Source of the DNA: Marsupella aquatica
Taxonomy: Eukaryota; Plantae; Marchantiophyta
Direction: 5' to 3'
Length of the DNA: 64,000 nt
Assembly: GCA_973895155.1 (NCBI GenBank)
Contig: OZ316893.1
Location: 24,727,520-24,791,519 of the forward strand
Shown: positions 3 through 34,911 of the stretch, piece after piece
Layout: every line of letters starts with the position of its first letter
Position numbering within the stretch: position 1 is the stretch's first letter
Position numbers and translations under genes: made by a program
Notes under the pieces: model-generated
What the model saw: the letters and a program-made list of their open reading frames with translations, nothing else
The model's database searches: none
What the model was told of the DNA's origin: nothing

Positions 3-1050
3 TTGGTGGCTGCATTGCGCAAATTTGAGGATCTTGGGCAGCACAATGGCCAACCAATAGCCCCAATCTTGAGCGCAGCAATTCCATGGACTCCTGCTCC
101 GGATGGCCTTACATTGCTTGAGCTTTTTGGTGGCATTTCTACAGGCCTGGAAGCTCTCCTACAGTCTGGCATGGTGGTGAAGCAGTACATCTATGTGCAT
201 ATTGATCCAGGTGCAAAGCAAGTGGCTGAATCCCGTCTGCTGGAATTTTCAGAGCAATTTCCTTAGCAGTTTCCACACAATGCATGGAAGTCTGCATTTT
301 CTTTCTTTCCTCCAGATATCCAGCTTGTCCAGCACCGGCACTTAACCCTTTTTGGCTCCCTTGATTTGATCATAGCTGGTTGGGAATGCCAAGGGTTTTC
401 AGTTGTTGGTCACGGTGCTGGACTGCATGATTCTCGTTCTGGCCTTTTCACAGCATTGGTTCAGATTCTCACCTGGGCTCAATCCCTTTATCCTGCTGTT
501 GATTATATCATTGAGAATACTCCATCTCAGTTTGACCAGCGCCCATAGGTCAAAGAGGATTTCAGTGTGGTCCAGCACTACTTGGGACCACCCCTTCTCA
601 TTGATGCAGTGCACTGTGGTTCTTATGCACATCGTCTTCGTAACTTTTGGACTAACCTTGCACCACCTTCCTTGTTGGAGTTAGCTCTTCATCACACATC
701 CAGGGACACTAACCTCATAGTGGACCAGATTTTGGATCCTGACAGTTCTTGCCAACCGGTTACACGGCAAGAGCCAGCACCTTGGTATCCAGCTAATACC
801 ATTGGACAACCCCGTGCTGCTTGGCCTACATTTGTGTCCTTTCCAGGTGTACATGCTTTTCAGGGTGATGGTCCTGGCCTGGTTTATCGACATTCTACCG
901 GTACATGGGATGAACCTAGTCCTGAGGAGAGAGAACGGGCTATGGGCTTCCAACCCGGTACTACAGGTCACACCAAAATCACCAGGCTAGCCAGGAATGC
1001 TTTACTTGGCAGGGTAATGGATCTTAATGCTCTCACTTGGCTTCTGGTCA
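3..1050 (+). pseudogene. DNMT3-like C5 cytosine DNA methyltransferase domain of the gypsy polyprotein (two premature TAG stops)
   Basis: One frame (ORFs at 3, 366, 567) gives motif I LELFGGISTG, motif IV DLIIAGWECQGFS, motif VI YIIENT, motif VIII AHRLRNFWTNL and motifs IX/X EERERAMGF..RLARNALLGRVMD. TAG stops at 264-266 and 546-548. Confidence 0.88.
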
Positions 1051-1389
1051 CTTGCATCCTTTTTCAGATGTACATTCATCCAGCATCAAGAGTTCCAGCC
1101 CTACCACTCCATGGTGCTGCTACATGGCATCCAGACCAGGTGCACTTACCTCTGTCCAACACTCACCACTTCAGTCCAAGTGTTGGGGGGGAGGAGGTCC
1201 CTTGTAATGTGGTTGACATTATTTCTGAGTTTCATGGTGTGGATCAGACCAGAGCAACAGATACAGCAGGCCTTGGAGAGGCCTCATCACCTTATCAGCA
1301 GCATGCTAGCAGCTTGGACAGTGGAGAGTCTGGCACTTCTGGCTCTTCAAGCACGAGTACATCAGGTCCTATTCCTAGTGTTGCCAACT

Positions 1390-2800
1390 ACACATTCATC
1401 ATGGGCAACCACTTGAGTAAAAGACAGAAGGACCAGCTGCTGAATTTGCTCCTCAAGCATGAGAATGTGTTTGCTTTCTCTATGAAGGACTTGGGTAAGT
1501 GCAAGACTATGCAGTTCTCCATTGAGTTGGCTGATGAAACACCTATCTTCAGGCGGAGACACCGTTTGAGTAAGCATGAGTGGCAGCTGGTGGATAAGAG
1601 ATGCCAAGAGCTCTATGAAGCTGGTCTTATTCAGCCCTCTACATCAGATTTTGCAGCAGCTATAGTGATGCCAACAAAGAAGGATTCCAGTGGATTGTGG
1701 ACAGAGAAGCGCATGTGTGGGGACTACAGGCCATTGAACCTGGTCACACCCCAGGACAGGTACCCCATGCCACGGCCAGAGGAGCTATTTGACAGCATTG
1801 GAGACTCAAACATCTTCACTCTTGTGGATCTAAGGCAAGGCTTTAACCAGATGTTGCTGCTTGCAAAGGACCGCAAGAAAATAGCTTTCCATGGTAGTAA
1901 CCAACTATGGGAGTGGTTGGTGATGCCATTTGGCTTGAAGAATGCGCCCATATTCTTTCAAAGAGTCATGGACCAGGTTCTTCAAGGTGCTGAGTTCTGA
2001 AATGCTACATTGATGATGTGTTGGTCCACAGCAAAGGATTTGACCAGCATCTACTTGACCTGGAGGAGCTATTCATGAGGCTTAAGAAGGTGAACCTAAA
2101 GATACACCCCAAGAAGTGTGAATTTGCTGTCAGATCAGTAGTATACCTTGGGCATTGCATTCTTCCAAATGGAACCATGGCTCACTGGGCCAAGGTGGTA
2201 TCCATCTTGGAAATGCCCACTCCGACTGATGTTCACACTCTTAGGAGCTTTATTGGGTTGTGCAATTACTACCGGATCTACATCAAAGATTTTAGTACCA
2301 TTGCACATCCATTGTACTCTTTGTTGAAAAAGAATGTGACTTGGACATGGAGTACAGATGCTGAGGCAGCATTTGCAACTTTGAAGGAGAAGCTCTCAGA
2401 ATACCCGGTGCTGAGAAGACCTGATTTCAGCAAGGTCTTTGTGCTACACACAGATTGGAGTGCCCTTGGGATTGGTGCCATTCTGGGCCAGCATGATGAG
2501 GAAGGTAAAGAGTACGTCATTGCCTATGCATCCAGGAGCAACAATCAGGCAGAGAGTCATTATTCTTCTTATGAGGGTGAATGCCTTGCTGTTGTGTGGG
2601 CTGTCATACATTACAGGCCCTACCTCTATGGGACTAGGTTTACTCTCTACACCGACCACCAGCCCTTGAAGTGGTTGATGACTAACGACAAGCTTACTGG
2701 CAAGCTTGCTCGTTGGGCACTCATCCTCCAGGAGTATGACTTTGAGGTAATTCATAGGCCTGGTTTGACACATCAGAATTCTGACACTATGTCCCACAGC
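1390..2800 (+). pseudogene. gypsy reverse transcriptase-RNase H (frameshift near 1995)
   Basis: ORFs 567..2000 and 2018..2956. The YIDD motif is reached by a frameshift at GAGTTCTGAAATGCTACATTGATGAT. Confidence 0.92.
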
Positions 2801-2892: not shown

Positions 2893-4377
2893 TTGCTGCC
2901 ATGCTATGTTGTTGACCAACCTGTGGTGGACATATGGGAGGACAGCGACACTCTGAGATTTCTGCAGCATGGGGAGTACCCCACACATGTTACTACTGCC
3001 CAGAGAGACCGAATTCAGCAAAGGTCCAAGCGCTACTTGTGGAAGGGAGATCATCTCGTGCGCTCCTTGCCAGACAAGGAAGTGGTGGTTCCACCCATTC
3101 ATGAGAGGGTTGGCCTTATTCGTAAGGTACATTCTGAGCTTGGTCATTTTGGCGTTAAGAGGACTTACAGCCTCTTGGTCCCTCATTATCATTGGAGAGG
3201 CATGCATGGCCAGGTTCGAGATGTTATTGCCCGGTGTGAGCAGTGTGATAGGGTAAGGACTTCTTTCACGTCTCGGCAACCCACACTTCACCCACTCCCT
3301 ATTCAGGGCATGTTTTATTGTTGGTCATGTGATTTGGCTAGAGAATTACCCCTCACATCTCGGGGTAATCTCTACATCATGATCATGATAGAGCATTTCT
3401 CCAAGTGGATAGAACTTGTGGCATTGCCAGATAAGACCTCCCGTAGCACCAGCCAGGCATTCCTACAACAAGTTCTCAGCCGCTTTGGAGCTTGTGCAGA
3501 ATGTCTCACTGACCAGGGCTCAGAGTTTAGAGGAGAGTTCCAGGAGCTGCTTGATCAGGCCCTCATTGATCATCGCCGGACATCACGAGATCACCCACAG
3601 GCAGATGGCTTGGCAGAGCGCATGGTTCAGACATGCAAGAAGGGCCTCCGGAATATCTGCCTCACCAAAAACAAGGAGGATTGGGACCTGGCCTTACCCT
3701 ACATTGCCATGGGGTATAGGATGTCCAGACATGCATCATTGTCTAACTTTTCTCCCTACTTCTTGTTGTTTGGTCGTCACCCAGTTCCACCTTCTGCTAT
3801 TGCTGCTCACATGCTTCAGGTGGTGGACTTGGATTCAGCTGTGACTTGGTCTGATGTGATCTCTGAGAGGGCTGCCCTATTTAGGAGGGTTATGCCCATG
3901 GCCATGGAGAATTTGGCCATTGCACAGCACAGGGACACACTGCGTTATGCACACACACGAGGGGGCACTTTTCAGCCCAAGGTCAGGAAGTTTGATGTGG
4001 GAGATTTTGTGTACTTACAGCGGCAAGCTAACGACACCCTGGACACCTCTACCAGTCATACTATTCTCAGGGTTAAAGCTATTCGACCGTCTGGAGTGCT
4101 AGAGTTACAAGGGGCAGATGGGCGCACAATTGCTGACAATGCCAAGAATTGCGCCCCTTGTCATCTGCCTAACCTAGATCCCACCATTGTGACTTCTACT
4201 TGGATTCCACCTGTGGACTACCCTTGCAAGGTGTGTTTGCGAATTGATGATGCTGACCAGATGCTGCTGTGTGACAATTGCAATGGAGGATACCATCTTT
4301 TCTGCCTTCGGCCTGAACTTACCCAGGTGCCAGAAGGGTTATGGTTTTGCCCTTCTTGTGCTCCACGTGCTACCTGA
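2893..4377 (+). CDS. gypsy integrase with C-terminal PHD finger (4225-4359)
   Basis: HSELGH..CEQC zinc motif and DDE (SCDLA, LTDQGSEF, GLAERMVQ). C4HC3 finger CKVC..MLLCDNCNGGYHLFC..VPEGLWFCPSC. Confidence 0.92.
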   Translation: MLPCYVVDQPVVDIWEDSDTLRFLQHGEYPTHVTTAQRDRIQQRSKRYLWKGDHLVRSLPDKEVVVPPIHERVGLIRKVHSELGHFGVKRTYSLLVPHYHWRGMHGQVRDVIARCEQCDRVRTSFTSRQPTLHPLPIQGMFYCWSCDLARELPLTSRGNLYIMIMIEHFSKWIELVALPDKTSRSTSQAFLQQVLSRFGACAECLTDQGSEFRGEFQELLDQALIDHRRTSRDHPQADGLAERMVQTCKKGLRNICLTKNKEDWDLALPYIAMGYRMSRHASLSNFSPYFLLFGRHPVPPSAIAAHMLQVVDLDSAVTWSDVISERAALFRRVMPMAMENLAIAQHRDTLRYAHTRGGTFQPKVRKFDVGDFVYLQRQANDTLDTSTSHTILRVKAIRPSGVLELQGADGRTIADNAKNCAPCHLPNLDPTIVTSTWIPPVDYPCKVCLRIDDADQMLLCDNCNGGYHLFCLRPELTQVPEGLWFCPSCAPRAT

Positions 4378-4415
4378 ATTTTCTTCAGCCCTCCTTTTGG
4401 CTGTGGTCTGGGGGG

Positions 4416-5127
4416 ATACAGAGGTTTACACCTCCACTACGTACATACCACTTCATTTGCTTTTTCTTGGCACTTGTGAATGTGATTGGACTTTTTCTAT
4501 GCATGTTGGTTGCTAGCAGCTTGCACATATGCCTTGCCAGTGACTTGTATGTTTTCAATACACTATGGCTACGATACTATATGTCACGACAGCTGTCATG
4601 CCGAGGGACAGTGCCTCTTATGCACATTGGCATGTCCCTCGCCTGCCCGCTAGGTATGTAGTTAGGGCTAGTGTACTACCTGAGTTAGCGACATGTTCTT
4701 GTAGCAAGTCTGGGCCGTTCTTGAAGCAAATGTGCTTGTTAGTGTGACGCCAGGACTTTGCTTGCTTAGGGCATGTCTTTCTTTGTGGGTTTTCAGTTCT
4801 TCTTGAATCGATGTCGACAGAGCTCAGACAGTGCTCGTCGGTTCCGTACACGGGATTCACACAGTGATTCGTTAGATGCTCCCGGCCGATCTTGGCATCC
4901 CGCCGGTTTTCGATTCGATTTCAATACACTTGTTTCTATCACGCCTTTTATATACAGAGGTTTACACCTCCACTACGTACATACCACTTCATTTGCTTTT
5001 TCTTGGCACTTGTGAATGTGATTGGACTTTTTCTATGCATGTTGGTTGCTAGCAGCTTGCACATATGCCTTGCCGGTGACTTGTATGTTTTTGATACACT
5101 ATGGCTACGATACTATATGTCACGACA
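4416..5127 (+). repeat. 176-bp direct repeat (4416-4591 and 4952-5127); putative 3' LTR 4594-5127
   Basis: Near-identical copies ATACAGAGGTTTACACC...TATGTCACGACA. The putative LTR starts TGTCATG and ends CACGACA. Confidence 0.8.
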
Positions 5128-5530
5128 AAACCAAAATCAAGCCCCTACCCTAAACCCTAACCCAAACTTCTCAATTACAACCTTACCCAAACCCCTACCT
5201 TAGACCCTAACTTAAAGCCCTCTATTAAAACCATGTCCCCAAACTGAAATATGTATAGAGCAAAAAATATGAAATCAGTGAAAAGTCAAACCCAACCCTT
5301 ACATTAAAACCTAAACCCAAATTAACCCCTTCAATTGAAACACAACCCTCCCTAAACTAAACCCTTTCTAAATCCAAACCCCAAATTAAAACTCAAACCC
5401 TTTGTTAAATTAGAACCCAATTAAGATTCAAAAACAAAAACACAAAGCCCAACTACAACCTAAAATCCTCTTCTTCAAACTAATTGGCCATTCACAAATC
5501 CATGTTGAATTAAAAGGGTTTAAATAGGCC
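5128..5530. repeat. degenerate telomere-like C/A-rich tract
   Basis: CCCTAAACCCTAACCC, AACCCT and AAACCC motifs with strong strand bias. Confidence 0.55.
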
Positions 5531-5937
5531 ATACCCTTGTAAAGCCGTTTAAACACCTGGGATAGTTTCCCACCCTAAACCAAGATCACCTGCCTCGCAA
5601 ATTGCTTCACAAATTAGAGATACATTTTGCGAACCTCCCGGTCGGGTTCGCAACATCTTCGCAAATACAGAGGCCGAGAGCAATTTTGGGCGTTTCTGCG
5701 GGTTGCGATGGATTAGCGAGGGTATGTTCTTCACAAAAGTATCGCAAGTTGCGAGACCGTTTGCGAAGGTAATAGGGTGGCAGTTTGTGATGCGAATGTG
5801 ATCGCAAAGAGGTGTTTTTTGAAATGCGTAAGTATCGGCGGGAGCTCGCGTCGAGCTCATTCCTTGTTTGATCGGGAGAGCGAGAGGAGAAGGGGCCGCG
5901 GGGAGAAGATTGAGAGAGACCTGAGAGGGATTGAGCT

Positions 5938-7990
5938 ATGGCTACCGGTGGGAGTGGAGAGCACGGTGGGAGTGGAGGACATGGTGCTGGTGGTAGTGGC
6001 AATGGGGCAAATCAGGAGAAGCAACATAATGCATGGAGCGACTTAGTAGCCCAACATCTCAGTGCTGCACAGTTGGGTGAAGTAAATTTGAATACTCCAG
6101 CAGGGCTTGCCTCCTTGAGTGCCATTTTAGGCCAGGTTTTGCAAACAGGAATTGTGGCAGGGCAAGCTACTAGAGACGAGGAAGAGAGGGTCGCAGCTGA
6201 GGAGAAGGCTAGAGAGAAAAGAAGGAAGAGGGAGGAGAGGGCTAAGTTGGGAGTTGCCTCTCCTCAAGCCATAGAAAAACAGAAGAGAAGAGAGGAGAGG
6301 GATGCAATTTGAAAACAACGAGATGAGCAACGTCAGAAAGAGGATGCAAGGAAAAAGCTTCCATTCATTGCCTTGGAGACAACTGGGACTCCAACTAAGC
6401 TAGCCTATGCAGGGGCTAAGAGCACCATCAAACAGATCATCACAAGCAATTTCTCACGAGGCATGCAATGGGGAAAGGTTGAGAAGGCAGAGCGAAAGAG
6501 AGTGATGAATCAGATCAAGGATGCATTTCGTAATGGAGCTGACATAGATGAGCAATGGTTGGCAGACAAAATTTCTAATTCCATGTCTCAAATGAGATAC
6601 CATGATAGGATGAAGATTAGAGCCCACCTGAGAGACTTGAGATCGTACAGGAATTTGCGCAGGCCCCTCCAATTCACTGAGGACATCTGGAATGCATTTT
6701 ACAAGATTGAGGTGCAAATCAAAGCAGCTCGCGAGTTGGAACAGTGGAAGGATACACTAGCTCGATCCCTGAAAGCAAAGGAGACCGGGAAGCTCCCCCT
6801 TGACCATGACCTGAAGGGACTTGAGCAAAAAATAGCTGATGTGCAAAAGGTGGTCGACGAAGAAGGAAGACCACCCAAACGTTTCATGGATGCAGCCAAG
6901 CGAGTGAAAGCCACCCCCAATCCAGTCCACAAGCTGGGTCAAGGCGGGCTCCTCGGTCTCAAGGCCCACTTTGTGAGTGTCTCCTCTCCTCCCTAAGCTC
7001 TTTCCTCCTTACTTTCTCAGTTGAGGTAATGCAAGTGAATGGAATGTCATGAATGTCCATGCTCTCATGTGCTTGCTTGTGCACTATTTTAGGTCACGAT
7101 TGACACTTAGAAATTTGCACATATTTAAAAACCTCTCGGGATCACAGTTTGAAATCCCATTGCGATGCGTATCCATTTGCAAGAGCCTCGCAAACTCTAT
7201 TATGCACTTTTTTCTTTTTGGATTTTCTGATGCTGTTGCGAAGGTACGCGCATCGCAAAAGCCATCGCAATGCCTTCGCAAAAATTAGGGCTTTGCATTT
7301 TGTGAACACATCAGCTTCGCAAATGTGAATTTGAGTTGTTTTCAAAGTAGTTTAACTTTTCTAGGCCTAAGGCCTCTTGCATTGTGAATTTTGGTTTAGC
7401 CTATGGGTTTAATTTTTGGTTTTATGGTGCATGGCAGTACCGAAAATATAAGAGGAAGATATCCAAGAAACATATTGAGATAGGGATGGAGCATGGGAGA
7501 AAGTACCTCTTTCAGATGGTGGATGCCGAGTTGGCTATTGTAAGTATCTAGGTGTTCAAGGTTTAATTAATTGTGATGCCAACATTGTGGATGACCCTTT
7601 TTAATTTGTAGAAACTGATTAAGTGTACGGATGTAGGATTTGGATGAGCCTGAGGGGTCGGGTGCTGACGCAAGTAGTAGTGATGATGAGGATGAGGGGG
7701 CTACTCCTCTTACCAGTGGTTCTAGGGAGAGGGGCAGTAGCCGGGAGGTAGGTTCATCCCATCGCGGTAGTGGTAGTAGTTGTGCATCGTCAAGACAGGT
7801 TGATGATGAGGGGGAGCAGGAGGGAGGTGACGAGGAGGAGGATGGGCATGAGGAGGAGGAGGAGCAAGAGGAGCAGCAGCGCCAAAAGGCACCACGCACC
7901 CGTCAGCACCAGGCTGTACATCCACAGAAGGATAAGGGCAAGAAGCCGGCAAAGAAGCCGACAAAGCGGGGTCGGAAGAGTCCATTTTAG
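5938..7990 (+). pseudogene. CACTA accessory (TnpA/Ptta-like) spliced gene, premature TGA at 6310
   Basis: ORFs 5938..6312 and 6373..6996 are in frame across one TGA. HKLGQGGL motif before a GTGAGT donor (~6973). Further exons ~7438-7539 and ~7638-7990 (acidic/basic tail). Confidence 0.55.
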
Positions 7991-9518
7991 TTAGCTTGTA
8001 GAATCTCATGACCGGGCTCATGAGATACATGTCACTGACTAGCCGTGTTGGAGCTTAGCTAGGATAGCATATGTTGAGTAGGGTGACTTGGCATCAGATA
8101 TGCCACCCCTCTTGTGTATTGGGTTCCTTAATTCAAGCTCTAACATTTTGGTATATCCACCTATATACTTGCATGGATCTTATAAAAAACATTTGCCTTC
8201 CACATTGGGTCCACTGCCAAGAGAAATCCCTCGCAAAACATTGATTGAAAGTGAGTCGTGTTCCCATGAAAGTGCAAACCCATTGCGAACGTGGATAACT
8301 AGGAAATACTGAAATGACTCGGATCGCTATTATAGAACCAAGTAACATCACAAGTTGCGAAGTCAAACGGTTCACAACTTCTGGCCTAAACCAACTCACA
8401 AGTTCCGATCCAATTTAGATCGGAAGTCCCCATCAAATTTATTTCGCATAAGAGTGATCTTATAAGGCTCGCTAGTTGCCAACCCCACGACATCGCAAAT
8501 ATTGAACTCATTCCCATCACAAACACGTAGCGAACCTTCCAGCTTCACAAAAACCAACGTCAGTAACAAAGGACCGTGCGGCATAATGCGAAGCGTCTGC
8601 AACAATTTTGAACTCGCAAGTGTTCGACAAGTTGCGAGGGAATTCGGTTGGGAAATTGTCATGGTGTTGCGATGGCGTTGCGATGGTCCGCGTGCGAAGG
8701 TTTTAACTTCACAATTTGGGATGGTGTAGCGATGCGTGTTAGTTCGCAAGTTCCGGAATTCTGTTTATCGGGCCTTTGTTGATTGCGATGTGTATGGGTT
8801 CGCAAAAGGGGCCGATAGTGTAGTAGTGTCTAAAAGAAAATGAAGCCATTTTTTTTGTCTCTGCAAGAAGTAGTGCAAGGCTGTCGTCCTTCCATGTAAT
8901 TGTGTCATGTTTTTGCCGGTGTTTGGATGGGGAATATTCTATTTTGCAAATGAATAGTGACAGGGCACTCAAGGAGGTAGTGTAATCTTCATTGAGTCAT
9001 TTCTGAAAAAACTGGTGTCATAAATACCAATGACTACAAGTAGGGTCATTAAATCTGTCATATGGGCTGTCACACAAGTCAAATGACTGGAGTTGTGGTC
9101 ATTTGAGGGGTCCTGTGACGGAGTCCCGCCACGGTAAGTCACCATTAGTGTCACCAGCAAGACACTTGTAAATAAATAAGCCCATAGATGCGAGTTTTTT
9201 TTAATGTTCTTTAAGTTTGTAAAGTTTTTTAATGCATCTCGGGATAGTCGGAGACCCCAACAGTTTTGTCTAGACCCGGGTTAATTATGGGGCGAGCGAG
9301 CCCTGCATAGGGCCGCGAGCCGCCAGGGAGCTACTAGGTGCGAGGGCGCGAGCTGCGGGTGGAGGGGGAAATTAAAACCCCCTTAGAGGGCTCCGCGAGT
9401 GATCGGGCAGGGGGGCCGCGAGCCCGCGAGGACGCGAGCTGCGAGGAAGGGGGACTCCCGCGAGTCGGGTGTTGTGCGCATAAACATCGCTACACAATAG
9501 AGTTTTGGTGGGGAGACA

Positions 9519-9802
9519 CCCACAGGCCACGGCTTGTAGCCAATTCATCTTGGTTGCATGGGTAGTCACCCACAGCCCACGGCCTGTGGCTGATTCATCT
9601 TGGTTGGGTGGGTTGGCACCCACAGCCCACGGCCTGTGGCCTCTTGCAGTTTGGTTGCGTGGGTAGTCACCCACAGCCCACGGCCTGTGGCTGATTCATC
9701 TTGGTTGTGTGGGTTGGCACCCACAGCCCACGGCCTGTGGCCTCTTGCAGTTTGGTTGCATGGGTAGTCACCCACAGCCCACGGCCTGTGGCTGATTCAT
9801 CT
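9519..9802. repeat. tandem repeat, ~101-bp period built from CACCCACAGCCCACGGCCTGTGG subunits
   Basis: Units start at about 9566, 9667 and 9768. Confidence 0.9.
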
Positions 9803-10660
9803 TCAAGAATAATCGAACAACGATTGATGCCAATCAAACACACAATCTTGTCTGACGCGATCACACACTTATGTCAAGCCAAACGCACCTTGCACCTCAA
9901 GGAGGTGATCAAGGCCAAGGAGGGGACCATTCATGAGAAGGTTAAGCTTCTCCAAGCAGCTCACGTAGAGATCTCCAACTTGAAGGGAGCCTTGTCCACC
10001 AAGGCCAAGGAAGCAGAAGAGGTGGGAGCGTTGAGACAAGCATTGGCCAAAGAGAAGCAGAATTCTGGAGAAGTGGTGGAGTGGAGAAACCAGGTGGGAG
10101 CACTACGGAGTCAGGTGGCCGCCTTTGAGACACGAGCGATGAGGAGTGAGGCCTTGAGTCTGGGGAAACGGAAGAGCCCCGACACACCTAGCTCCACACT
10201 TTCCCCGGATTTGATCTCCCAGGCTATTGAGATGGTGGTGAAGGAGGTTAGTGGGAAGTATGGGCCCTTGTTGGATGGAGTCAAGAAGAGTCAGGAGAAG
10301 AGCAAGGGCTTGGAGAAGAAGCTCTGGGAGGTACGGAAATCATTACGGGAGGCTCAGGTCAGTACGGGGATGCCACCCAGGTCTGTCACCCCCGGGACTC
10401 CCATGGCCACAGAGCAAGTTCTACCGTTGGAGTTGCGGTCCGGAGAAGAGGCTACCCTATGGAAAGACACCATTGGTGAGGGGTACATCAAGGCGTGGCA
10501 GGCCTTGGCCACTTTGAGGAAGCAAGGGAGCGGCAGCACGAAGAGTACCCCGGTAAAGAAGAAGAAAAGTGAGGTGGCACTCACTCCCGTGAGTGATGAA
10601 GAGGAGGCCCACTCACGGGGCACAAGCCGGGGCACCGAGAGTGAAGAAGAGGAGGAATAG
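9701..10660 (+). CDS. uninterrupted coiled-coil/charged ORF inside the solo-LTR-like element
   Basis: 319-codon open frame with E/K/A/L-rich heptads (VKLLQAAHVEISNLKGALSTKAKEAEEVGALRQALAKEK), a KKKK NLS-like motif and an acidic tail. Confidence 0.5.
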   Translation: MVVWVGTHSPRPVASCSLVAWVVTHSPRPVADSSSRIIEQRLMPIKHTILSDAITHLCQAKRTLHLKEVIKAKEGTIHEKVKLLQAAHVEISNLKGALSTKAKEAEEVGALRQALAKEKQNSGEVVEWRNQVGALRSQVAAFETRAMRSEALSLGKRKSPDTPSSTLSPDLISQAIEMVVKEVSGKYGPLLDGVKKSQEKSKGLEKKLWEVRKSLREAQVSTGMPPRSVTPGTPMATEQVLPLELRSGEEATLWKDTIGEGYIKAWQALATLRKQGSGSTKSTPVKKKKSEVALTPVSDEEEAHSRGTSRGTESEEEEE

Positions 10661-10673
10661 ATAGTCGTACGGA

Positions 10674-11001
10674 CTCGGGGGGGTCACTTCCACGGAAGTG
10701 ACACATCACGTGCGACGAAGTATAGGCCCATTTAAATGGGTGTGACGGAAGACTTCAAAAGTTTGGTGGAAGAACACATAGGGCATGTTTTATTGATTGG
10801 TCGACTTTAAAGAACACATAGGCCTATTTAATTGCAAAAAATACTTTCTATAAAGTTTTTAGGGGTTTTTTAATAAAAAATGACAAAATTTTAAGAAAGA
10901 AAGGGCTTTGCGAAAAAATATTTTTCACTTTAAAGTTAGGGGGGTCAAACCCTAAAACGTCGCACGCGATGTATGACCCTCCATATAGTGACCCCCCCGA
11001 G
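10674..11001. mobile_element. MITE, copy 1 (8-bp TSD CGTACGGA)
   Basis: TIRs CTCGGGGGGGTCACT / AGTGACCCCCCCGAG. TSD at 10666-10673 and 11002-11009. Second copy at 19892-20217. Confidence 0.92.
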
Positions 11002-14000: not shown

Positions 14001-15666
14001 GGTTTGTGTGCTTCTCTGTCTCTCTCTCTGACTGCTCGAGTTTTGCAAATAAGGGTTTGGTTGCCAAAGTAAATTAGGAAATGCCATTTTTCCTGTCTGT
14101 CTGTTGATTTCCGACAGTCCTTATCAATTGTTCGATTGTTCACGTTGGTCCCTGTCTTGTTTGTTGGGTTCTAGCATTGCCTAAACAGATCCCCCTAGTT
14201 CCTGTACAGTTTGAGGTTGTTCATCCCATAGCCACTGTCAAGTCTGCGCCTAGACTTGCTCAATATTTCAAGTCCATGACTGTTTTTGTTATGCAGCGGA
14301 ATGTAGCCTCTCAAAATAAATCATTCACACAACTCTGACCAAATTAGCAGTTCAAACTGCCACTCGTCTCCCTGGTTCAACCCAATGCACATCAATTGAT
14401 CAAATCCTCTGCCAGTATGTAGAGCACAATCATACATTTGATGAGGCCCCATATTTTGAGAATTGTTGAAGGCAGCCCTTGGTTCGGGGTTTAGTAGGGA
14501 ATGAAGATATAAGAGTCGGTTATTGAAGTTTGGTGATCGAGCCCAATGTCTCAAGAAGAGCTTAAACTGTCGCTGGTATTTTATAGTATTCCAAACGGTT
14601 GGTTCGCTTTGTCATTGACCTCACGGTATACCTGTTTTGAAGTTCGGGCCAAGCGCGAGTAGAATTTTCCCACCACTTAGACTCTATCTACATATATGCG
14701 GAGGTTCTCAACCTCGTACACATAGGCACCTGCAGAGCACTAAGCTAACAAACAATACTGGATGATTGTGTAACTCAGGTCTCACTGATTCTCTCTGGCT
14801 AAGTATCATTCTCCGTTTCCATGTCTCCAGTCCACATCCCATTTGGTGAACCATGTAACAGATGGCAATGCTTTCGACCTATGCCTTAGACCCCAGTGTT
14901 AATATACAAGAGGTCTAAGTTGAGTGACGCATTGAAGTAGAATCACCGACTGTTAATCCTCGCTGAGAGGGACCTGCCCTTGACAGTACCATAGCCCAGA
15001 CCTAGTGAAGACCCACTGAATGACAAAAATCTGCGTATGTTGGATCTCTGTTGCGTTCTACTTTCTTTCACAGATTTTCTTGTTTTCTGTCCTCTGTGTT
15101 CAGCTTGCGGGCGGGTTTTGTCATGATTTGATTGGGTCATTGTTTTGAAGTCGTAGCCGTCCAGGTCAAAAGCTGGTCTATAAAAAATGAATTCATGGAG
15201 CTTAGGTTGCTGCTGTATATAAAGCCCAGCAGGATCCAGAACTGGAAAACTGTCCCAGCTTACTACTTGAATCTGAAATTCAAGTTAAAAAGACATGAAC
15301 TATTTGCTCTTAATTGCTATGTACCATCTGACATTATATATGATGAATGTACTTAAACAATTCACTCTCATTGTGTCAGACAGTTCTCTCCATCGCGTCC
15401 TATTAATAGCACATTGTTGCATAATTAGAAAGTTCATTGCACTTCTGACTTTCTTATGTGCAGCGAATGGAGCTTAAAACATGAGAATCAAGCGTTGGCA
15501 ACTGACAGCCGTTGCTAAAAGTTTGTTGTTGAGTGAATAGACTGCCTTGATCAGATAACAGTCTAGGATGGTTTAAACGACCTCACAAGGAGAAAGCTTG
15601 TTGAGAGTACAGTAACTAAGTACGGTTCTATAACAGATGTGTCCAGCACCTTAAGACGTAGAAGGC

Positions 15667-18402
15667 TTGGGACCTTTGGGGAAGTGTGTGTCACCTTTAA
15701 TTATGATTAGTCCACAGCAGACCGGTTTCATTCCCGGTCGACATATTTTGGAGAATATCTCGCTTACTTGGTTGGCAAGCGACTGGATTGAATATACGCA
15801 GACCCCATCTCTCTTTTGGAAACTTGACTTTGAGAAAGCTTTTGATAGGGTTGACCATCTTTACATCTGGGAGACTATGAACCTTCTAGGTCTTAGTTCA
15901 CATTTCATCCTCTTGGTACGGTCCCTATTAAGCAACTCTTGCTCTAAAGTTCTTGTCAACGGTCTTTGGTCTGCTGATATTCACATGTGCAGAGGAGTCC
16001 GGCAGGGGTGCCCCCTCTCCCCTCTTCTATTTGCTATCTCTACTCAGCCCCTAATGGATTTCTGCCAGGCAGAGATTGTTGCTGGTCGTTTGCAGGTACT
16101 CAAAATCTCCCCTTCATTCACCCTCTGTTTTAGGTTGTTTGCTGACGATCTGGGCCTCTTTATCCTTGCTGATGTGATAGCTTTTGAGCAAGCCACAAGC
16201 ACTATTACCTGCTATATCAACCATCATTCCCTTGGCACTTGAAGAGATCCCTGGCTGGCTACAGGACACTGGCTGTACAATCAGCCCTGCTGGCACTGTG
16301 CAGAGATATTTGGGTGGACCTTTTGGATCCAATCTTACTGAGAAGCAACTACATTTCTTTTGCTTAGACCAGATTAGTGCACGTCTTGCATCCTGGTCCA
16401 CTCGCTTTCTTTCCTTCACAGGTCGTCTACTGTTAATCAAGCATGTGCTTCAGGCCATCCCGGTCTATCACATGATGTTCCTACTCTCTCCCGTTGCTTT
16501 GACTAAAAAGCTGATTGCTTTAAACCGAATTTTTCTGTGGGGTTCAAACCCGCTGGGTGGAAGACGCATCCCACTTGTGGCTTGGGATAAGATGACTCGA
16601 CCCAAATCTGACGGAGGACTTGGCCCGAAGGACTTCAAGAGTCACTCTGATGCCCTTCTGTGTAAGTGGTTTACTGGCGCTCTGGACCATCCTGAATCTG
16701 AATGGGCTTGCATGTTTGCGGAAAACCTTCGACTTACCAAATGGCGGAACTACAAGGCTATACGTCGAAGCTCTTACTCTATGGCTGATAAGTTGCTACT
16801 CTGTACCCCTCGTAGCTTTGGGAGACTTACGTATACGAATCAGTTGTGGAGTGCCTGGGAGAGAATGAGATCAAATTTGATTTTTTGTCCTACTGAGGCT
16901 GATCATATCCCTGGCCACTGGGGATTTGAAGATACTATCCGTTGTCTACAAGGGTTCTACAATTTACCTGAGATCAATATTGTGCTGCTAACAAGAATGT
17001 TTGGTTCTCTGGGTATTAGGAGAATTTGGGACTTCTGGTCTACAATTGATGGCGCTTGCCTGGAAAAATGTTGAATTATGTATACATCGTCTGAGAGGCC
17101 TTACACTTCCCACCAGGACTTTATGCCTCTCTCTTGTCGGTGTGATCCATGGCTCTCCCTGTGAGGGAGATGCTATTGCTTCTCGTACCTGCATGTGGCG
17201 CTGGTTGGATCGGGAGGAGAGAATGAATCGTTTTGACTTAACAAATGCACGTGCTTATGAGTTGCTTCGCCCAAAAGGCACTGACTCCGCCCGGCTGAAC
17301 CGGATCTGGGGGGAAAATCTACCGGATGAGGATTGGAATAGAGTGTGGAACACTGTGTGGACTTCTGACCTCTCTACCCGTGCTAAGGTCTTTCTGTGGC
17401 GGATTATTGTGCAAGGCTTGTTCTCTGGCTGTTCTCTCTACGGATTGGCAAGTCGGATGGCTGTTGTGGCTTATGTGCTGGGACAATTGAAACTATTCCT
17501 CACATTTTCTTTTCATGTCGTCATGCTTGTTGCTGTTGGCTGGAGGTCCACGGATGGATGGAGGATGCACTCTACGATGGATCACCAAGTTTATTCACTC
17601 TAATTTTTTCCGCTGCAGGGAAACTGCCTATTCACTCTCTTTGGATTTACACGGTTTACCAGATTCTATGGTGCATTTGGCTAACCCGTAATGCTCAAAC
17701 TTTTGACAGAACTCGTCACAGAATCTTTGATCAATTGCTGGTGATTTCTGAGATTCTGGACCACTTGAATGCGGTTATCACATCCACTTTGGTGCTGTCT
17801 ACCTCTCTTTTAAGTCACAAACACCGACGCCTCTCAGATGCTAAGGGACTGATAGAGACAGAACGCATCTGCATTCTAAGGAGTGGGGTTAGGAGGATTG
17901 AATCCATCCTAGATGGCGGTGCTGCAGGAGGGCACCCGACGCTTTGATCCTTTTTTTAGGCCAATGAAGCTCTTAGCTAATAGTTTACTTAGCTGCCTTT
18001 GTATCCTTGATCATAGGCCTACTTTATATCTTTAGGATTAGGAATTTTTGCTCTTATGCCTGCCCTAGATCTTATTACGGTATTCCGAGCTGCTTGACTA
18101 CCCCCCCTTTTTTTACCCTTGCAGGCTTGGTTGACTGATAAGCCTTAGGACCATACTTCTGACAAGACATCCGTCTCCTGGCACTGGCACTATTTTGATT
18201 CTGCTTTGCCCTTGAGTTGATTAGATACAACTGTCTGAGTGCCAGTGAACACTTGATTCGTACTAGTTTTCAACATCTGTGGGATCTGATGTCCTTGACT
18301 TTATTGGACTCTTATTTGCCCTTTGTGGCTTCTGCTGCCTTTTGGCCTGCTGGTTCCCCCCATCCGTGGGGTTCACGCGGAATAAAAGTAAAAACAAAAA
18401 AA
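15667..18402 (+). mobile_element. 5'-truncated L1/Tx1-type LINE (RT + zf-RVT), frameshifted
   Basis: QTGFIPGR, KLDFEKAFDRV, GVRQGCPLSPLLF, FADD and YLGGP motifs, plus CCHC CGLC..ETIPHIFFSC. Ends in AATAAA and an A-rich tail at 18381-18402. Confidence 0.9.
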
Positions 18403-19809
18403 CTATACTCCTCAACAGAATGGTGTTTTTAAGAGGCTCAATTGAACACTATTGGAACGCTCGAGGAGTATGTTGAGCCAATCATGCTTACCACATGAAT
18501 TTTGGGCAGAAGCTATCAATACTGCAGCTTATTTGGTAAATTTCTCTCCATCTAGTGCCATGGGAATCAAGACGTCATTTGAAATAAGGTACGGGGGTCA
18601 AGTGGATTATTCACATCTAAGGGTTTTTGGATGTGATGCTTATGTGCTTACACCTTCTCAGCTTCGGTCTAAGTTGAAGTCCAAGTCGAGGCAGTGCATT
18701 TTCCTTGGATATTAGAAATGTGTAAAAGGTTATAGGTTATGGGATCCAGTAACCTCTAAGTTAATTGTCAGTAGAGATATTTCCTTTAATGAATCCAGAT
18801 CATCAAAGGAGGGGGAGAGTTCTTAGGGCTCCCATATTGACAAGGAAAAATCCCCTATCCCGGACCCGGTTGGGGGGGAGATAAGTCATGATGATGTTCA
18901 TGATAGGAGAGAAAAAGATGCTTTGGGTATGAAGCTAGTTCTTGTGATGGAACAAGAGGAGCAGATTGATGTTGGTGTACCTCAAATTCAGCCAACAGCA
19001 GCAGAAGATCAGCCTGAATCATCTACTAGAAGAACTTCCAATCGTTCTACTAGAACTCATACCAGGTATGGACAATAGGCAGATTCATCTAAACTAGATG
19101 ATGTTAACATTGCGCTTGACGATGATCATATAACTTTGATCTTGGAAGAAGGAGAGCCTTCTTCGTATCATGAGGCAAGTGCTTCAAAGCAAAAGCAACA
19201 ATGGACTGCAACAATGCAAACGGAGATGCAGTCACTGAAGGACAACAAGACTTGGGAGTTGGTCAAGCTTCCTAAAGGCCAACAAGTGGATTTACAAGCT
19301 GAAGGATCAATCCATAGGAGGTGGATCAAAGGTCTACAAGGCTAGGTTGGTAGCCAAGGGATTCACACAAGAAAAAAGTGTGGATTACAATAAGGTCTTC
19401 TCACCAATTGCTAAGTACTCTACAATACGGCTATTGTGTGTACTTGTTGTTTTATTTGGTTTGCTGCTAGAGCAGATGGATGTTGTCATAACTTTCCTCT
19501 ATGACACCTTGGAAGAGATGATCTTCATGATACAGCCACTAGGTTTTGTGAAGAAAGGACAAAAGGATTTGGGCAGATTATTGAGATCCTTGTACAGGTG
19601 GATCAAGGCAGTGGAATAAGCGGTTTGACGATTGGATCCGTGCACAGGGTTTTCACAGGATTGTGTTTGATCCTTGTGTGTATCTTAAACCGGTGAAGAA
19701 TGTTGTGCTTGGTTTTATTATTTTAGTAAGTCTTTATGTGGATGACATGCTTATTGCGGCCAATGATAGATTTGAGATTGTTAAGCTCAAGACACTGCTT
19801 AGTGCAGAG

Positions 19810-20489
19810 TGTTAGGTATTGCTCTTAGTCTTGTGACTCATGAGCTAACCATAGTTAGACTAACTCGGGTTAGGACTTATCTAAGGTTAGCCTTAGGGGG
19901 TCACTATATAAAGGGCCATACATCGCGTGCGACGTTTTAGGGTTTGACCCCCTAACTTATAAGTGAAAAATATTTTTTTGCAAAGCCCTTTCTTTCTTTA
20001 AATTTTGTCATTTTTTACTAAAAAACCCCTAAAAACTTTAAAGAAAGTATTTTTTGCAATTAAATAGGCCTATGTGTTCTTTAAAGTTGACCAGTCAATA
20101 AAACATGCCCTATGTGTTCTTCCACCAAACTTTGGAAGTCTTCCGCCACACCCATTTAAATGGGCCTATACTTCGTTGCATGTGATGTGCCACTTCCGTG
20201 GAAGTGACCCCCCCGAGAGGTTAGCAATAGTTCTGTTGTGTATATAGCCAGGGCTGGTGCCAGACCCTGGAGGGACTAAAGGTTCATTGTTACAGAGCTA
20301 GTCGAGAGATAGGAAGAGCTTGCATTGTGGATGCTTGGTATGGCCGGTCGGCCTAGAGTGCAGTAAAGCTCTTGTGTGTTCCCGTGGACGTAGCCTCATG
20401 TGGAGGTGAACCACGTATCTCTCTGTGTCGACTCTTGTGAGTTGGATGGTTCATGGGCTTGCCGTTGCGATTGTCGTCTATGCTCAACA
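19810..20489 (+). mobile_element. solo LTR of a related copia inserted in the RT (5-bp TSD CAGAG)
   Basis: CAGAG|TGTTAGG...CTCAACA|CAGAG. Clearly similar to the LTR at 21592 (CTTAGTCTTGTGACTC..CTAACCATAGTTA). Confidence 0.88.
19892..20217. mobile_element. MITE, copy 2 (inverted relative to copy 1; 8-bp TSD AGGTTAGC)
   Basis: Near-identical reverse complement of 10674-11001. TSD at 19884-19891 and 20218-20225. Confidence 0.92.
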
Positions 20490-22790
20490 CAGAGTTTAAG
20501 ATGAAGGACTTAGGGTCAGCTAAGAGGATTTTGGGTATGGAGATCACTAGGGATTTGGAGGCTGGTAAGCTATGGTTGACGGAGAAGAAGGTAATTGCAA
20601 GGTTCAACATGGGGGATAGCAAGCCAGTAAGTACCCTGTTGGCTCCACACTTCAAGTTGTCATCAGCTTTCTGTCCTATAGATGAGACAGAGAAGAGGCT
20701 AATTTCAAAGGTTCCTTATGACAAGGCAGTGGGGAGTCTCATGTATTTGATGACTTGCACTAGACCTGATCTTGCCATGACTATGGGCAAGGTGAGCAGG
20801 TACATGTCAAATCTAGGGACGGTACCCTAGGAAGTAGTTAAGTGGATTTTTTGGTACTTGAAGGGTACCGTGGATCATGGTCCTTTGTTTGATGCACATG
20901 TTGATAATGCGAGATCATTGATGGGATATGTAGATGTTGACTATGCACAGAATCTGGATCGGAGGAGGTCTACAACTGGGTATGTGTTCACACTTGGCTG
21001 TGGATGCATAAGTTGGAGATCTACTTTGCATAAGTGTATTGCTCAGTCTACTACAGAAGCTGAGTATGTTGCAGCAGAGGAAGCAACGAAGGAAGCTATT
21101 TGGTTGGATAGACTGATCACTGAGATGGGAATGCCACAAGGGAATGTAAAGCTCCATTATGATAGTCAGAGTGCCCTTCACCTTGTTGTGAACCAAATGA
21201 TGGACAGCAGAGTGAAGCACATGGATACTAGGTACCATTTATCAGGCAGGGTGTGTTTGATAATCAGTTTGAGCTAGTCAAGATTGACGGTAAACTCAAC
21301 TAGGCTAACGCATTTACCAAGGTGATTTCTTGGAGAGTTTTTCAAGACACCATGCTACTTTGTAGGTTTTGCAGTTGAAGTGCAAGTAGAATTACTTAGC
21401 AGTTTTTGTGACTTATTGTATATAGATTCTTCGATCCTGGTAGACTACGGCTTAATTACAGTTTACCCTTAATTAACCCATGGTGATTTTTAGGGGGAAA
21501 CCTATTTAGGTGATTGTCTAGAATTTCCCGTTGAGGATATCATATGGTAACAATTAATCCAGTTCCCAAGACTAGAGTCAAGAAGGAGTTTTGTTGAGTA
21601 TTGTTCTTAGTCTTGTGACTCTAAAACTAACCATAGTTAAGCTAACTCAAGTGATGATTTAGCTTAGGTTAGCAATGATGCACGATGTATATAACCAAGG
21701 CTGATGCCAACCCCTGGTGGATCTTCAGTTCATTGTTAGAGTGGACAAGAGAGAAGTAAAAGTCTCTTGCTTTCCCATGAACGTAGTCTCAATCGTGAGA
21801 TGAATCATATACTCGACTACTTTGTATGATATTCACATGTGTATGGTGTCTCAAAATGGATAAGAATTATCCCTAACAATTTTAAGATTTGTGGCCAATC
21901 CACGCAAGTTTGTCTTGTCCAGCAGGGCTTTATGCTAAACATCCCGGTCCATCCGAGCTCTACGTTCATAAAAAAGAACTCAATAATTGAAGATACAAAT
22001 CTAATTCAAAAGATAAAAATATTATTTTAATGTTTGTTTTTAAATTAAAAAATATTTTTCTCTTAAAATTGTTTAGAAAATAGAATGATACATGACCCAT
22101 AAGGAAGCCAAGAGCTCCTTCTTTGAATAAAATAATTTCAAGTCTAATATTTGAGTACCAAGCCGGGGCACGACTTTAGTATGTGGGCAAAGACAATAGA
22201 CTCCAGTCTTTAAACAATGTTATTAAATAAAGCGTTGAATACGAAAAAAAAGTCATTGTGAAGTGAAATCAGGGTAGAGCAATGTTGCAAGTGTATTTTG
22301 AAATAACATGGGCAGAAATTGAGCTCTCTATTTACATAGCACCAAATTCACAAGGTGAGTAAGTTAATTCTCCGTTTCGTTCTATCTGTGTAGAGCAGAG
22401 ACCACTGCAATTGGAACACAATTTGGAACACATCGAAGGTTGGACGAGACGGATCAGAGTCTGTTTTTAAGACCATTCGATGTTGTGGATGAAGTGCCCT
22501 TATTCAGCGGACACTACCGAAAGCCCAATTTCCAGACAGTCCCTGCTGTATTTTCCTACTTCACGCCCTCGGGGAGCTGAAGGTGGAATGCACGGCGATA
22601 TTTTGGTGGAGGATATGTTCAGATCTGCGGTGGTCTGTCTGCTGCTGCATTCACGATTTCATCGGAAAGGGTTTGGCTTTTCTATGACTGAAGTAGTGTT
22701 CCTTTCAGCTGTTTCACTGTACAAAACTGTTGCTATCTGCCTCTGCATGTGAGTAGATTTGGCTGTGCAGGATGGCGAGTATTTATCTAT

Positions 22791-32113: not shown

Positions 32114-34688
32114 TTAAGCTGGGATTAAAGAAGGTTCGCGGGATTCCTCTACCGATGGGTGCTGGACCTCCCAGCTTGTCAGCTCTCCTTCAACAAAATC
32201 GTAATACCATCCATGAAGTCCTAACTTTCCAGCTTCAAAACTCTCCTTTATCCAGGGAAATGTCAGCAAGTTGGCGAGTGACCCATTAACGGCTTCCTGT
32301 TTCAGATATAGGCAGATAAGTAAGCACGGTTTCAACTATCTAATTTCATGCAACAGAACAGAGATGAAAACGAACGGGGAAGGACGAGAGGAGAAGGGAG
32401 GGGGGGAGTTCGTTGTTGAGAACACTCACCCTAGAAACATGGCATTGGAGTATCTAAAAGAGCTTATGTAATTATGCGAAAGTATATTACAAAGAAGTTC
32501 ACAACTTCAGGAAACAAACTAACATCTTCTGAGGAGGACATGAGGACTTGCCTGCTCGCAGAATTTACACTGGTCATTAAATGATCTGCCCTCCATTTGC
32601 ACCAAAGTATGAGTCTTGGCTGGTATCGCACAACTCATCCACCGCCCGATGAAGTCACTGCAAAACGACTCGGCTCAGAGAAGTTTAGAAGAGTGGATAA
32701 CCACAGTACATTCTTCTTTCACTGGAACCCAAAAGTCATTCTTACAAAAATAGAAAGAAGGAAACTGGACAACACGTTGAATTTAAAAACAACAACGTTG
32801 AAGCGAATGCAACATACTCTTCCTTAGAAAAGTATATCACAATGACACGACTGGATTGAAATCCAATCCTAGCACATACCTTTCAAACTCAGTGGCCTTG
32901 CGAGACATCAAAGCCTTAATACCTCCACAATTTCGGTGCCCAATAACAATGATATGCTCCACCTGGCGTGCAAGAAAGAAAAAGCTTTAGTCTCGGACGA
33001 AAACAACCAACCAACCACCAATCACCGGAGCAGATGTCAATAAGATCCTCGAGGACCAAGAAGAAATAACAGTTACCTTTAAAGCTGTCACGGCAAATTC
33101 AAGAGCAGCACTCGTCCCATGTAAACCAACCTGCACATTGGGCAATCGTTCAACGATATTTATAAAATTCCTGTGAAAAGTCTATGTACTATCCAAAACA
33201 AGACTTCATCAATATTAACATCCACCCATCCATCCCAATTTCGAATAAGTCCGTAGAGCACATTTAGCTACTACAATTGCTGAAGGACTTCAACTTCCAA
33301 CAGCTTGGATTTCTGATCATCTAGCACAAATCAAGTCTTTCCTGAAAACTCTATTTTGTAGGTTAGTTCAGCATTCTACCAACTAACAGAAACTCTGAGA
33401 TCGTCAGGGAATCTAGCTGTGACGATCGATTTCACATTTGCTGAGTATTGAGGAGGCTAAGGTGCGCCACTATTGCAAGGATCACGAAAGTTGGAGTCAA
33501 GGACGCCACTCAATCCACCATTTACATACCCTGTCCTTCTCGCAAGGAGGAACCAAATTGGCCACATTGCGAACAGTAAAAACTTCCCCAGGATCCAACC
33601 CCATAAGCATTGTTGGACAAACTCGAGAATCAGCACAAGCGATCACCATCACCTGGACCAACAGAGAAACCCACATACATGACGGCCATGACTTAACACC
33701 CTGGGAAATACAATAAACAGCCGAAGAAACAAGAAGAACGTATATTCTATAGAAGGGAGACCAACCAGATTGAATTGTATCACGCTGACGAAACCGTTTC
33801 AGGAAAGGTCAAGCAAGAAGTTAAGCAGGTCTGGGAGATAAAAACATTAGTATAGCACTTTGGAAAGACGTTTCTAAGTGGACAACCAACAGTTATTACA
33901 ATTCTCAACCGGTGACTCGCGTATGCATTGAGAAAATGGTGAATGTTTGTACAAAACCATGTAATGAAGGAAACAATAAGCCATGCAGCTGGAGGGCATC
34001 GAACTCGAGACAGATTCAAGCCAATGACTAGCATGGAAATCACAAAAGTGCCCGGTATATACCTTCGGTTGCTGGCCCTCGGCAAGCTGCGAGAAAAGGC
34101 TGGTTTCCTTGCTGTATCCACCAATTCAATACACCAGAACGAAATGAGCCTCAACATTTCAGTACTCCTGGAACGACGAGACAGGAGACCCATTCTCAAC
34201 AGATGAAATAAAATCACAGGCGATCAGATTAGGGTATGGGGATGAAGAACTCACAGAAACCGCTCCTCTTTGAATTTGACAAAACCCTGCTTCAATCTGT
34301 TGAGGACATCAGCACTAGTCGTTTGGCTCAGAGAATTTTTGTTAACCTTCTGAGGCTCAGAAACATCGTAGTCACCCTGGAGGGCAGCTCCAAACGCCCT
34401 GCTGCTTTCCCCACGGGGAGTAGCCTCCGTAGAAACATCACCCCGATCTCCTTTCTCGTCAATCAAACTGACCTTCTTCACCATACTAAAGGGTGGATAT
34501 TTCACAGAACAAGAAGAAGAACCGGCCGATGACCGCGACACTGCACAGCGTAAAGCAGGCACCATGGGTGCTACGGCTTTGGGCCATTTAACCCCACCGC
34601 CGGTCAGGGTCTCTGAAGGACGTCCATGCTGCGTGAAACCTCTGAAGAACGAAGAGGACAAGACGCTCAATTCAGCAACCTGCAGCAT
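32114..34688 (-). CDS. BCA: beta-carbonic anhydrase, probably plastid-targeted (multi-exon)
   Basis: Exons [51 protein letters not shown] and [24 protein letters not shown]. Ser/Arg-rich N-terminus. Confidence 0.93.
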
Positions 34689-34911
34689 ACTTCTCGAACG
34701 AGGAGAACACCACAGCTCGAGCAGGTCCCCTCCAGCAGCAATGTTCCAAACGCTCTTCCTTCTCAGAGATCTCCACAACCATATCGACGCCGTAGCACTC
34801 TGCGTTCACCCCGGGAGCTCGTCGCTCTTCTTAAACTCCTCCTCCACAAGGCATTCTCCAATCCTCCGCCCTCCAAGCTCAATGCGTGTGGATCATCAAT
34901 CACAGACACAC

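Follow-up and report, generated by a model that had tools for sequence, protein, structure and literature searches.

A Gypsy-DNMT3 retrotransposon with probably permuted ends in the liverwort Marsupella aquatica and its bryophyte relatives

The analysed 64,000-nucleotide stretch of the Marsupella aquatica genome (referred to as the window; contig OZ316893.1 of assembly GCA_973895155.1, positions 24,727,520 to 24,791,519, forward strand) contains a dead copy of a retrotransposon from an abundant Gypsy-DNMT3 family, of which only the 3′ part, opening inside the polyprotein, falls within the window. Elements of this family are built as gag, protease (PR), cytosine methyltransferase (MT), reverse transcriptase (RT), RNase H (RH), integrase (INT) and PHD finger; two repeats, A and B, are arranged as A-coding-B-GC-A-B, the ends are TG...CA with 4-bp target duplications, and the MT is under purifying selection. 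We consider it probable that the window contains a Gypsy-DNMT3 copy whose MT is likely to methylate its own cDNA and whose proviral form is likely to arise from an integrase cut at a palindrome inside the long terminal repeat (LTR). New here, to judge from the literature covered, are the range of hosts and an end structure that is probably permuted and self-primed, while the capture of an MT is of an already known kind. Why a retrotransposon should carry a cytosine methyltransferase is considered an open question (PMC5890265).

The coding part of the window element comprises the following features:

3..86 (+), end of the spacer between the protease, located upstream of the window, and the MT; in relatives the protease stops about 250 nt before the MT
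87..1082 (+), DNMT3-type C5 cytosine methyltransferase domain with stops at 264 and 546, identified by profile, structure-relative and fold matches
1083..1499 (+), Ser/Gly-rich linker, in frame; dN/dS 0.16–0.30 in 7 of 8 pairs, one pair being saturated
1500..2155 (+), reverse transcriptase, with a frameshift at about 1995–2000 immediately ahead of YIDD
2348..2737 (+), RNase H, with a second frameshift beyond it at about 2870
3094..3990 (+), DDE integrase with an H2C2 zinc finger (3094–3261) and a core (3316–3597)
4225..4377 (+), C-terminal PHD finger and stop codon (PF00628, E 7.6e-12)

Frame +3 extends over 665 codons from 3 to 1997 and is open apart from the TAG codons at 264 and 546. Since none of 1000 shuffles of this stretch contained two or fewer stops in any forward frame, the frame lies far beyond chance, and the in-frame passage from MT to RT, broken only by two TAG stops, noticed in the preliminary description is thereby substantiated. 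The profile search proposed there matched PF00145 at 267–545 above the Pfam cut-off (E 2.4e-7), the RVT_1 match falls into the same frame, and the Pfam order in the element is C5 DNA methylase, RT, RNase H, integrase and PHD finger. The window copy itself is dead, as it carries the two stops, frameshifts at about 1995 and about 2870 and a lost acidic residue in motif II, which is acidic in 127 of 134 MT domains. Most of the covering contigs from four runs do not share its first stop or either frameshift; the contigs of these runs cover MT and RT equally, and one of them spans 738–1600. The two B repeats of the window differ at 3 of 176 sites, each compatible with CpG decay, which suggests a recent insertion that likely became methylated afterwards.

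The motifs of the MT domain, which we take to be I (120–137), IV (378–395, with the Cys at 387–389), VI (513–518), VIII (627–641), IX (927–947) and X (993–1016), stand in unrearranged order. The suspected resemblance to DNMT3 was recovered in both sequence and predicted fold. The best solved relative of the window domain by sequence is DNMT3A (E 4.7e-9, compared to 0.02 for M.HhaI); a profile of the family reached DNMT3A with E 3e-22, HaeIII with 3.5e-7 and DRM2 with 1.6e-5; and a Foldseek search with the MT model (pLDDT 74.6) listed 38 matches, all of them DNMT3A, DNMT3B or DNMT3C with a TM score of about 0.65. The ESM Atlas returned only generic C5-methylase clusters for the MT. A host plant DNMT3 or DRM gene was rejected on account of the retroelement domains, the lack of introns and the motif order, which is not permuted as in DRM. 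In Marchantia, the relative of the window MT is Mp_8g17980, a different gene from MpDNMT3b (Mp5g09290).

The MT is a fixed trait of the family rather than a peculiarity of the window copy. Among 80 loci picked by their MT, 70 encode RT or RNase H downstream, eight reach the contig end, and the remaining two, without such a domain, represent one insertion seen twice. The ratio of nonsynonymous to synonymous substitution rates (dN/dS) of the MT, calculated for pairs of the window with eight of the 80 metagenome loci, is 0.07–0.12 in all eight pairs at a near-saturated synonymous divergence (dS) of 2.2–3.2; the Ser/Gly-rich linker is under weaker constraint in the same comparison. Among close decayed copies the values for MT (0.10–0.48) are comparable to those for RT (0.16–0.61). 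These sequence comparisons show purifying selection on the MT across the family, in agreement with the earlier proposal; the observations named in advance as contradicting it, namely family copies devoid of the MT, a failure to match C5 methyltransferases or a lack of purifying selection, were not made. With respect to the catalytic residues, the Cys is present in 252 and the Glu in all of 253 domains, and the two motif-VIII Arg in 249 and 246 of them.

The 3′ end of the element is organized as follows:

4405..4415 (+), polypurine tract adjoining repeat B; the same G-run precedes B in 15 of 15 relatives and in the distant element L137
4416..4591 (+), first copy of repeat B, terminating in CACGACA and 98.3% identical to 4952–5127
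4585..4600 (+), near-palindrome CACGACA-GC-TGTCATG; all 15 relatives preserve the spacing of 2 nt, and the core is also found in L137
4594..4951 (+), repeat A; contigs have variable loose ends ahead of 4594 and a conserved non-B continuation past 4951
4794..4808 (+), segment of A complementary to what directly follows the 5′ copy of A, predicted to act as self-priming partner and as transcript start
4952..5127 (+), second copy of repeat B and 3′ end of the element; variable loose ends past 5127 in two runs

The contig loose ends, the B-GC-A junction and the non-B continuation after A together indicate the layout A-coding-B-GC-A-B. The other A copy, at the 5′ end of the element, and the target duplication of the window copy lie beyond the window; the same layout was, however, seen in seven full-length relatives of 8.6–10 kb or more. 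Among the distinct insertions, 15 terminate in B-A-B and nine in B alone. The element ends, TGTCATG and CACGACA, conform to TG...CA, and 12 full-length insertions were inspected for a 4-bp target duplication, which is perfect in seven, matches at three of four positions in two and at two of four in another two, and is absent in one. Canonical Ty3/gypsy elements share the TG...CA ends, the polypurine tract and a short target duplication, which measures 4–6 bp in them, but they possess two full LTRs, whereas here the 5′ end consists of A alone and the 3′ end of B-A-B or B. The near-palindrome at 4585–4600 corresponds to an internal copy of both insertion ends and is a candidate att site of the integrase.

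A primer site of the tRNA type was not seen after A. Instead, the 11–13 nt directly following the 5′ copy of A are predicted to pair with a stretch inside A, and, counting duplicates, a perfect complement of at least 10 nt was present in 16 of 35 5′ copies but in none of the 24 internal copies of A. The stem is 94% paired, compared to 36–61% after sliding; a separate calculation gave z −4.4. The stem is kept with other letters in the liverwort family (13 nt) and in L137 (13 nt). L137, the MT of which is 41% identical, retains the polypurine tract and palindrome core as well. Tf1/sushi and Tcn1 elements are known to prime themselves in this way (PMC6317226).

On this basis we propose a first scenario for the life cycle of the element. 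The RNA would very likely begin inside A, and its 5′ end would pair with the site right after A in a Tf1-like self-priming reaction. Reverse transcription would then yield an ordinary cDNA flanked by LTRs of the composition B-GC-A, because the polypurine tract places the left cDNA end where B begins, and the primer site places the right one where A finishes; accordingly, B-GC-A is presumed to be the working LTR, and the A|B joint would mark the meeting of two natural cDNA ends. Integrase would probably take both ends from the palindrome of the left LTR, while the natural cDNA ends are joined by repair to form the A|B joint, either prior to insertion as a circle or after insertion; B-B recombination or a one-LTR form would give the single-B copies. 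The A|B joint shows short losses in 6 of 15 copies and is exact in nine, the palindrome spacing is intact in all 15, and both the state of the joint and the single-B form are scattered over the copy tree rather than clustered. A cut inside the left LTR combined with repair of the natural ends is the simplest reading of such an error-prone joint, intact spacing and scattered forms, and permuted integration, considered by itself, appears rather likely from the sequences.

Several observations weigh against this scenario. Covariation of the stem within the family is weak (2 of 15 pairs), and 26 of 500 shuffles paired equally well. The copy tree is poorly resolved, with 2 of 20 branches starred, and the second B is closest to the first B of its own copy in just 8 of 15 cases. 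The mirror form A-B-A-coding-B did not occur at any of the 22 5′ ends that were placed correctly, which represent about 20 distinct insertions. Symmetric integration of a two-LTR circle, which predicts this form, was rejected for that reason, and an unexplained asymmetry has to be assumed. The missing mirror form would be accounted for if B-A-B were templated from an RNA spanning all of it, as proposed for the split repeats of DIRS/PAT elements, without any joining of ends; the layout indeed matches that of DIRS elements (PMC5890265), and the exact joints would also fit. We nevertheless regard this route as unlikely, since A ends at the primer site and B starts at the polypurine tract, precisely the two places that define cDNA ends, since deletions at the joint are scattered over lineages, and since a DDE integrase and 4-bp duplications, but no tyrosine recombinase, are present.

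Regarding the function of the MT, an action on the own cDNA inside the particle is considered most likely by analogy: cDNA methylation in the particle has been proposed for SymbioDIRS-Dnmt3, the related DNMT3 domains of which methylate CG in yeast (PMC5890265). Whether the protease would free the MT in the particle, where it would add 5-methylcytosine to the new cDNA, seems evenly balanced to us. No methylation was obtained with the Klebsormidium enzyme in yeast, a result called inconclusive (PMC5890265), and the usual Pro before the motif-IV Cys is replaced by Glu in 156 of 253 domains, those of the window's clade included. Moreover, CpG depletion had to be abandoned as a sign of self-methylation, because the observed/expected CpG ratio (CpG O/E) is 0.25 in the coding region and equally low (0.23) in an MT-less copia fragment of the same window. 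All three findings would suit an MT retained for binding of cDNA, RNA or S-adenosylmethionine (SAM), or as a particle scaffold, rather than for catalysis. We rate such a non-catalytic role as improbable in view of the near-invariant Cys, Glu-Asn and both Arg at an overall identity of 33–45%, the Pro-Cys motif retained in 84 of 253 domains and the CG methylation by the SymbioDIRS-Dnmt3 relatives.

An active MT might also target host chromatin, such as the flanks of new insertions or other repeats, rather than free cDNA, and form a writer-reader pair with the PHD finger like DNMT3 with its ADD domain. The best solved matches of the PHD finger are WSTF, CHD4, KDM5, ATXR5 and BAZ2B; fingers of the BAZ/KDM5-PHD1/ATXR5 type, as carried by the integrase, prefer histone H3. 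The window copy appears to be inserted in another transposon, and CpG O/E is 0.11–0.32 in the flanks of three full-length relatives, values to be read without a genome-wide baseline. Complete polyproteins of the gag-PR-MT-RT-RH-INT order without PHD finger nevertheless exist (P0009, P0028 and P0260), and the MT occupies two different positions in the polyprotein across the family, so that we consider host chromatin an improbable target. As part of the scenario favoured here, the PHD finger might steer insertion via unmodified H3 tails, a step on which we lean slightly towards the negative. The further idea that the element evades silencing by methylation was not supported: when the repeats of an old relative are paired, 38% of CG, 39% of CHG and 13% of CHH sites differ, and decay at CG and CHG is the pattern expected of host silencing.

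A more far-reaching proposal would be a green-lineage-wide class of DDE-integrase elements that integrate inside the LTR and use the DNMT3 domain to distinguish the two site copies by methylation of the CpG in CACGACA; we consider it a long shot. In this speculation, the LTRs would be marked on opposite strands and only the left site would be cut. The window and 12 of 15 internal copies have the CpG in question, although CpG O/E in the coding region is 0.25–0.4. Such a switch, if true, would account for the absent mirror form and assign to DNMT3 a role in integration rather than in silencing.

The family is large, abundant and young in the liverwort. MT searches retrieved 85 long and 68 shorter relatives, and 611 clusters (50% identity) at E < 1e-30; another retroelement domain is present in 111 of the best 150 MT relatives. 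Its abundance is apparent from 6,221 contigs of one run that map to the first 6 kb of the window, and runs carrying three coded organism labels contain near-identical element DNA, with shares of 0.25–0.55. As had been anticipated from the missing protease motif, no protease lies between MT and RT, and close relatives carry gag and protease right before the MT. This order A, gag-PR-MT-RT-RH-INT, was assigned to 39 of 154 proteins, including those of Marchantia, Calypogeia, Sphagnum and Closterium. Order B, RT-RH-MT-INT-PHD, applies to 89 proteins, e.g. of Haematococcus, Chromochloris and Monoraphidium, and the remaining 26 are too short for an assignment; P0010 is uncertain, as a weak RT match suggested order A despite its position among order B. 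Several chlorophyte elements (P0044, P0045, P0070, P0074 and P0081) have the MT between RNase H and integrase, and some add a G-patch or Tudor-like domain; the literature covered yielded no description of these elements.

Order A forms a single clade in the RT tree (8 rows), and the MT tree unites order B in one clade. Across 57 shared rows, the MT tree reproduces 20 of the 22 RT splits that are well supported; the agreement of the trees indicates that both domains were inherited together. The clade of the window MT (100/100) contains one Calypogeia protein and the family of 80 metagenome loci. The latter is of Sphagnum type, because a named S. magellanicum protein is 85–94% identical to its member L003 in PR and MT; this protein shares 55–57% identity with the window MT. 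A recent horizontal transfer between the liverwort and Sphagnum-type elements is unsupported, dS being 2.2–3.2 or saturated. A second bryophyte MT clade comprises Marchantia, Calypogeia and Sphagnum proteins. The approximately unbiased (AU) test rejected joining the two clades (p 0.0035; 12 rows versus 23), which gives only a hint of their separateness, as the groups were named after the tree had been seen, the model was simple and unnamed rows are perhaps also of bryophytes. The probability that the window copy acquired its MT in a single event from a host DNMT3, a phage or a bacterium, or that it is an assembly chimera, is practically negligible, for nothing was found in favour of either, the same fusion recurs in dozens of loci and in named genomes, the 80-locus family, the contigs of multiple runs and the purifying selection rule them out, no host DNMT3 occurs among 153 MT-search matches, and no close donor emerged among viruses (56 loci; at best 28% over about 210 residues) or among six prokaryote-genome loci, where the sole full-length match is itself a gypsy element.

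Two members deserve separate mention. L137 (3–6632), a contig in a cyanobacterial genome bin and probably a contamination, is a near-intact eukaryotic family element with gag-PR-MT, one TAG and RT-RH-INT-PHD. Its TAG precedes CAATCA, presumably a leaky-stop signal of the UAG-CAR-YYA type, and P0004–P0006 terminate at the same place; in this clade the MT would be produced at gag levels. P0011 (Marchantia Mp_8g17980 / MARPO_0055s0073) is a gag-PR-MT retroelement protein labelled DNA (cytosine-5)-methyltransferase in UniRef. Protein databases thus list MT domains of the family among the DNA methyltransferases of the host, which can inflate DNMT counts.

The surroundings support the land-plant origin supposed earlier. 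A host gene for a PAS-containing EDR1 Raf-like kinase occupies 40400–47830 (−); the identity of one of its exons is highest to the liverwort Calypogeia fissa (80%), followed by Marchantia (55%) and by Riccia and Sphagnum (43–48%), where widely covered (15 matches), so that the gene by itself points to a leafy liverwort as the likely host. The other features of the window are:

5128..8828 (strand not assigned), flank formed by the remainder of a CACTA-like element, the apparent insertion target of the window copy, with the CACTA end at 8828; repeated in runs X1 and X6, with open reading frame (ORF) remnants at 5935–6993 but no Pfam match in the ORFs
9695..10657 (+), 321-codon coiled-coil-like ORF after a repeat of 50-bp period (9504–9803), without Pfam match and probably transposon-derived
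10674..10996 and 19896..20217, inverted pair, 95%
15655..17944 (+), decayed LINE-like element with RVT_1 match
19239..21274 (+), presumably copia-like RT/RNase H fragments, judged by motifs
34254..34805 (−), exon which by motif we take to resemble the start of a beta-carbonic anhydrase; no Pfam match on this piece
36471..36994, imperfect self-inverted element of about 520 bp (70% identity), possibly a MITE or foldback

The previously known cases come from organisms with little genetics. The presence of the family in Marchantia polymorpha, for which methylomes and methyltransferase mutants are available, makes the question of MT function testable on existing data. Moreover, the end structure points to an integration route unlike the textbook LTR route, and finders that require two full LTRs would, judging from the method described in PMC6317226, miss such elements.

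The closest known system is KnitGypsy-Dnmt3 (Gypsy-DNMT3) of Klebsormidium nitens, described by de Mendoza et al. 2018 (PMC5890265). The window family shares with it an unrearranged, intronless DNMT3-type domain in the gypsy pol ORF, the gypsy domain set of PR, RT, RH and DDE integrase, the DIRS-like A-coding-B-A-B repeats and a low substitution ratio of the MT (Ka/Ks under 0.2 in the alga, 0.07–0.12 between lineages here). The K. nitens protein GAQ93235.1 has the same order of zinc knuckle, protease and MT and is 36% identical over 327 residues, although the window MT is not its sister in the MT tree, the deep nodes of which are unresolved and which contains no host DNMT3. The window family differs in its land-plant host, its high copy number and young age, and in Glu-Cys instead of the algal Pro-Cys in motif IV. 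An integrase-terminal PHD finger is not stated for KnitGypsy-Dnmt3 in the text of PMC5890265, nor are a self-priming site, an internal palindrome or 4-bp duplications described there. Of the land-plant class suggested in the preliminary description, the land-plant element stands; it is, however, neither a new class nor a fresh capture but a bryophyte branch of the Klebsormidium Gypsy-DNMT3 kind with relatives across green algae. In the passages covered, later papers refer to Gypsy-DNMT3 only by the term “streptophytes” (PMC12344493; bioRxiv 10.64898/2026.05.21.726589). Neither a description from land plants or chlorophytes nor an account of the end mechanism turned up in the literature covered; outside its scope were Repbase, subscription papers, the Klebsormidium domain map in Fig. 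4c and the figures supplementing PMC5890265 and PMC12344493, sources that may show some of these features.

Among other systems, SymbioDIRS-Dnmt3 and PAT-like DIRS elements resemble the window family in their split repeats and the DNMT3 domain in pol (PMC5890265) but employ a tyrosine recombinase, whereas the window element has a DDE (rve) integrase and a 4-bp duplication. Troyka elements, considered on account of split repeats, were excluded by the TG...CA ends and 4-bp duplications. They have CG...CG ends and a 3-bp duplication and occur in animals only (PMC12440569). Gypsy-7a_cRei of Chlamydomonas is likewise a green-lineage gypsy polyprotein with a PHD finger, proposed to bias insertion; in the text of PMC9940879 it is listed without methyltransferase and with near-complete LTRs at both ends. 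Finally, the Tf1/sushi and Tcn1 chromoviruses, the latter present in mosses and club-mosses, share the gypsy domain order and the predicted self-priming in place of a tRNA primer (Neumann et al. 2019, PMC6317226). In domain layout and ends, the window family departs from them by a PHD finger replacing the chromodomain, by the MT insert and by ends of which neither is a full LTR.
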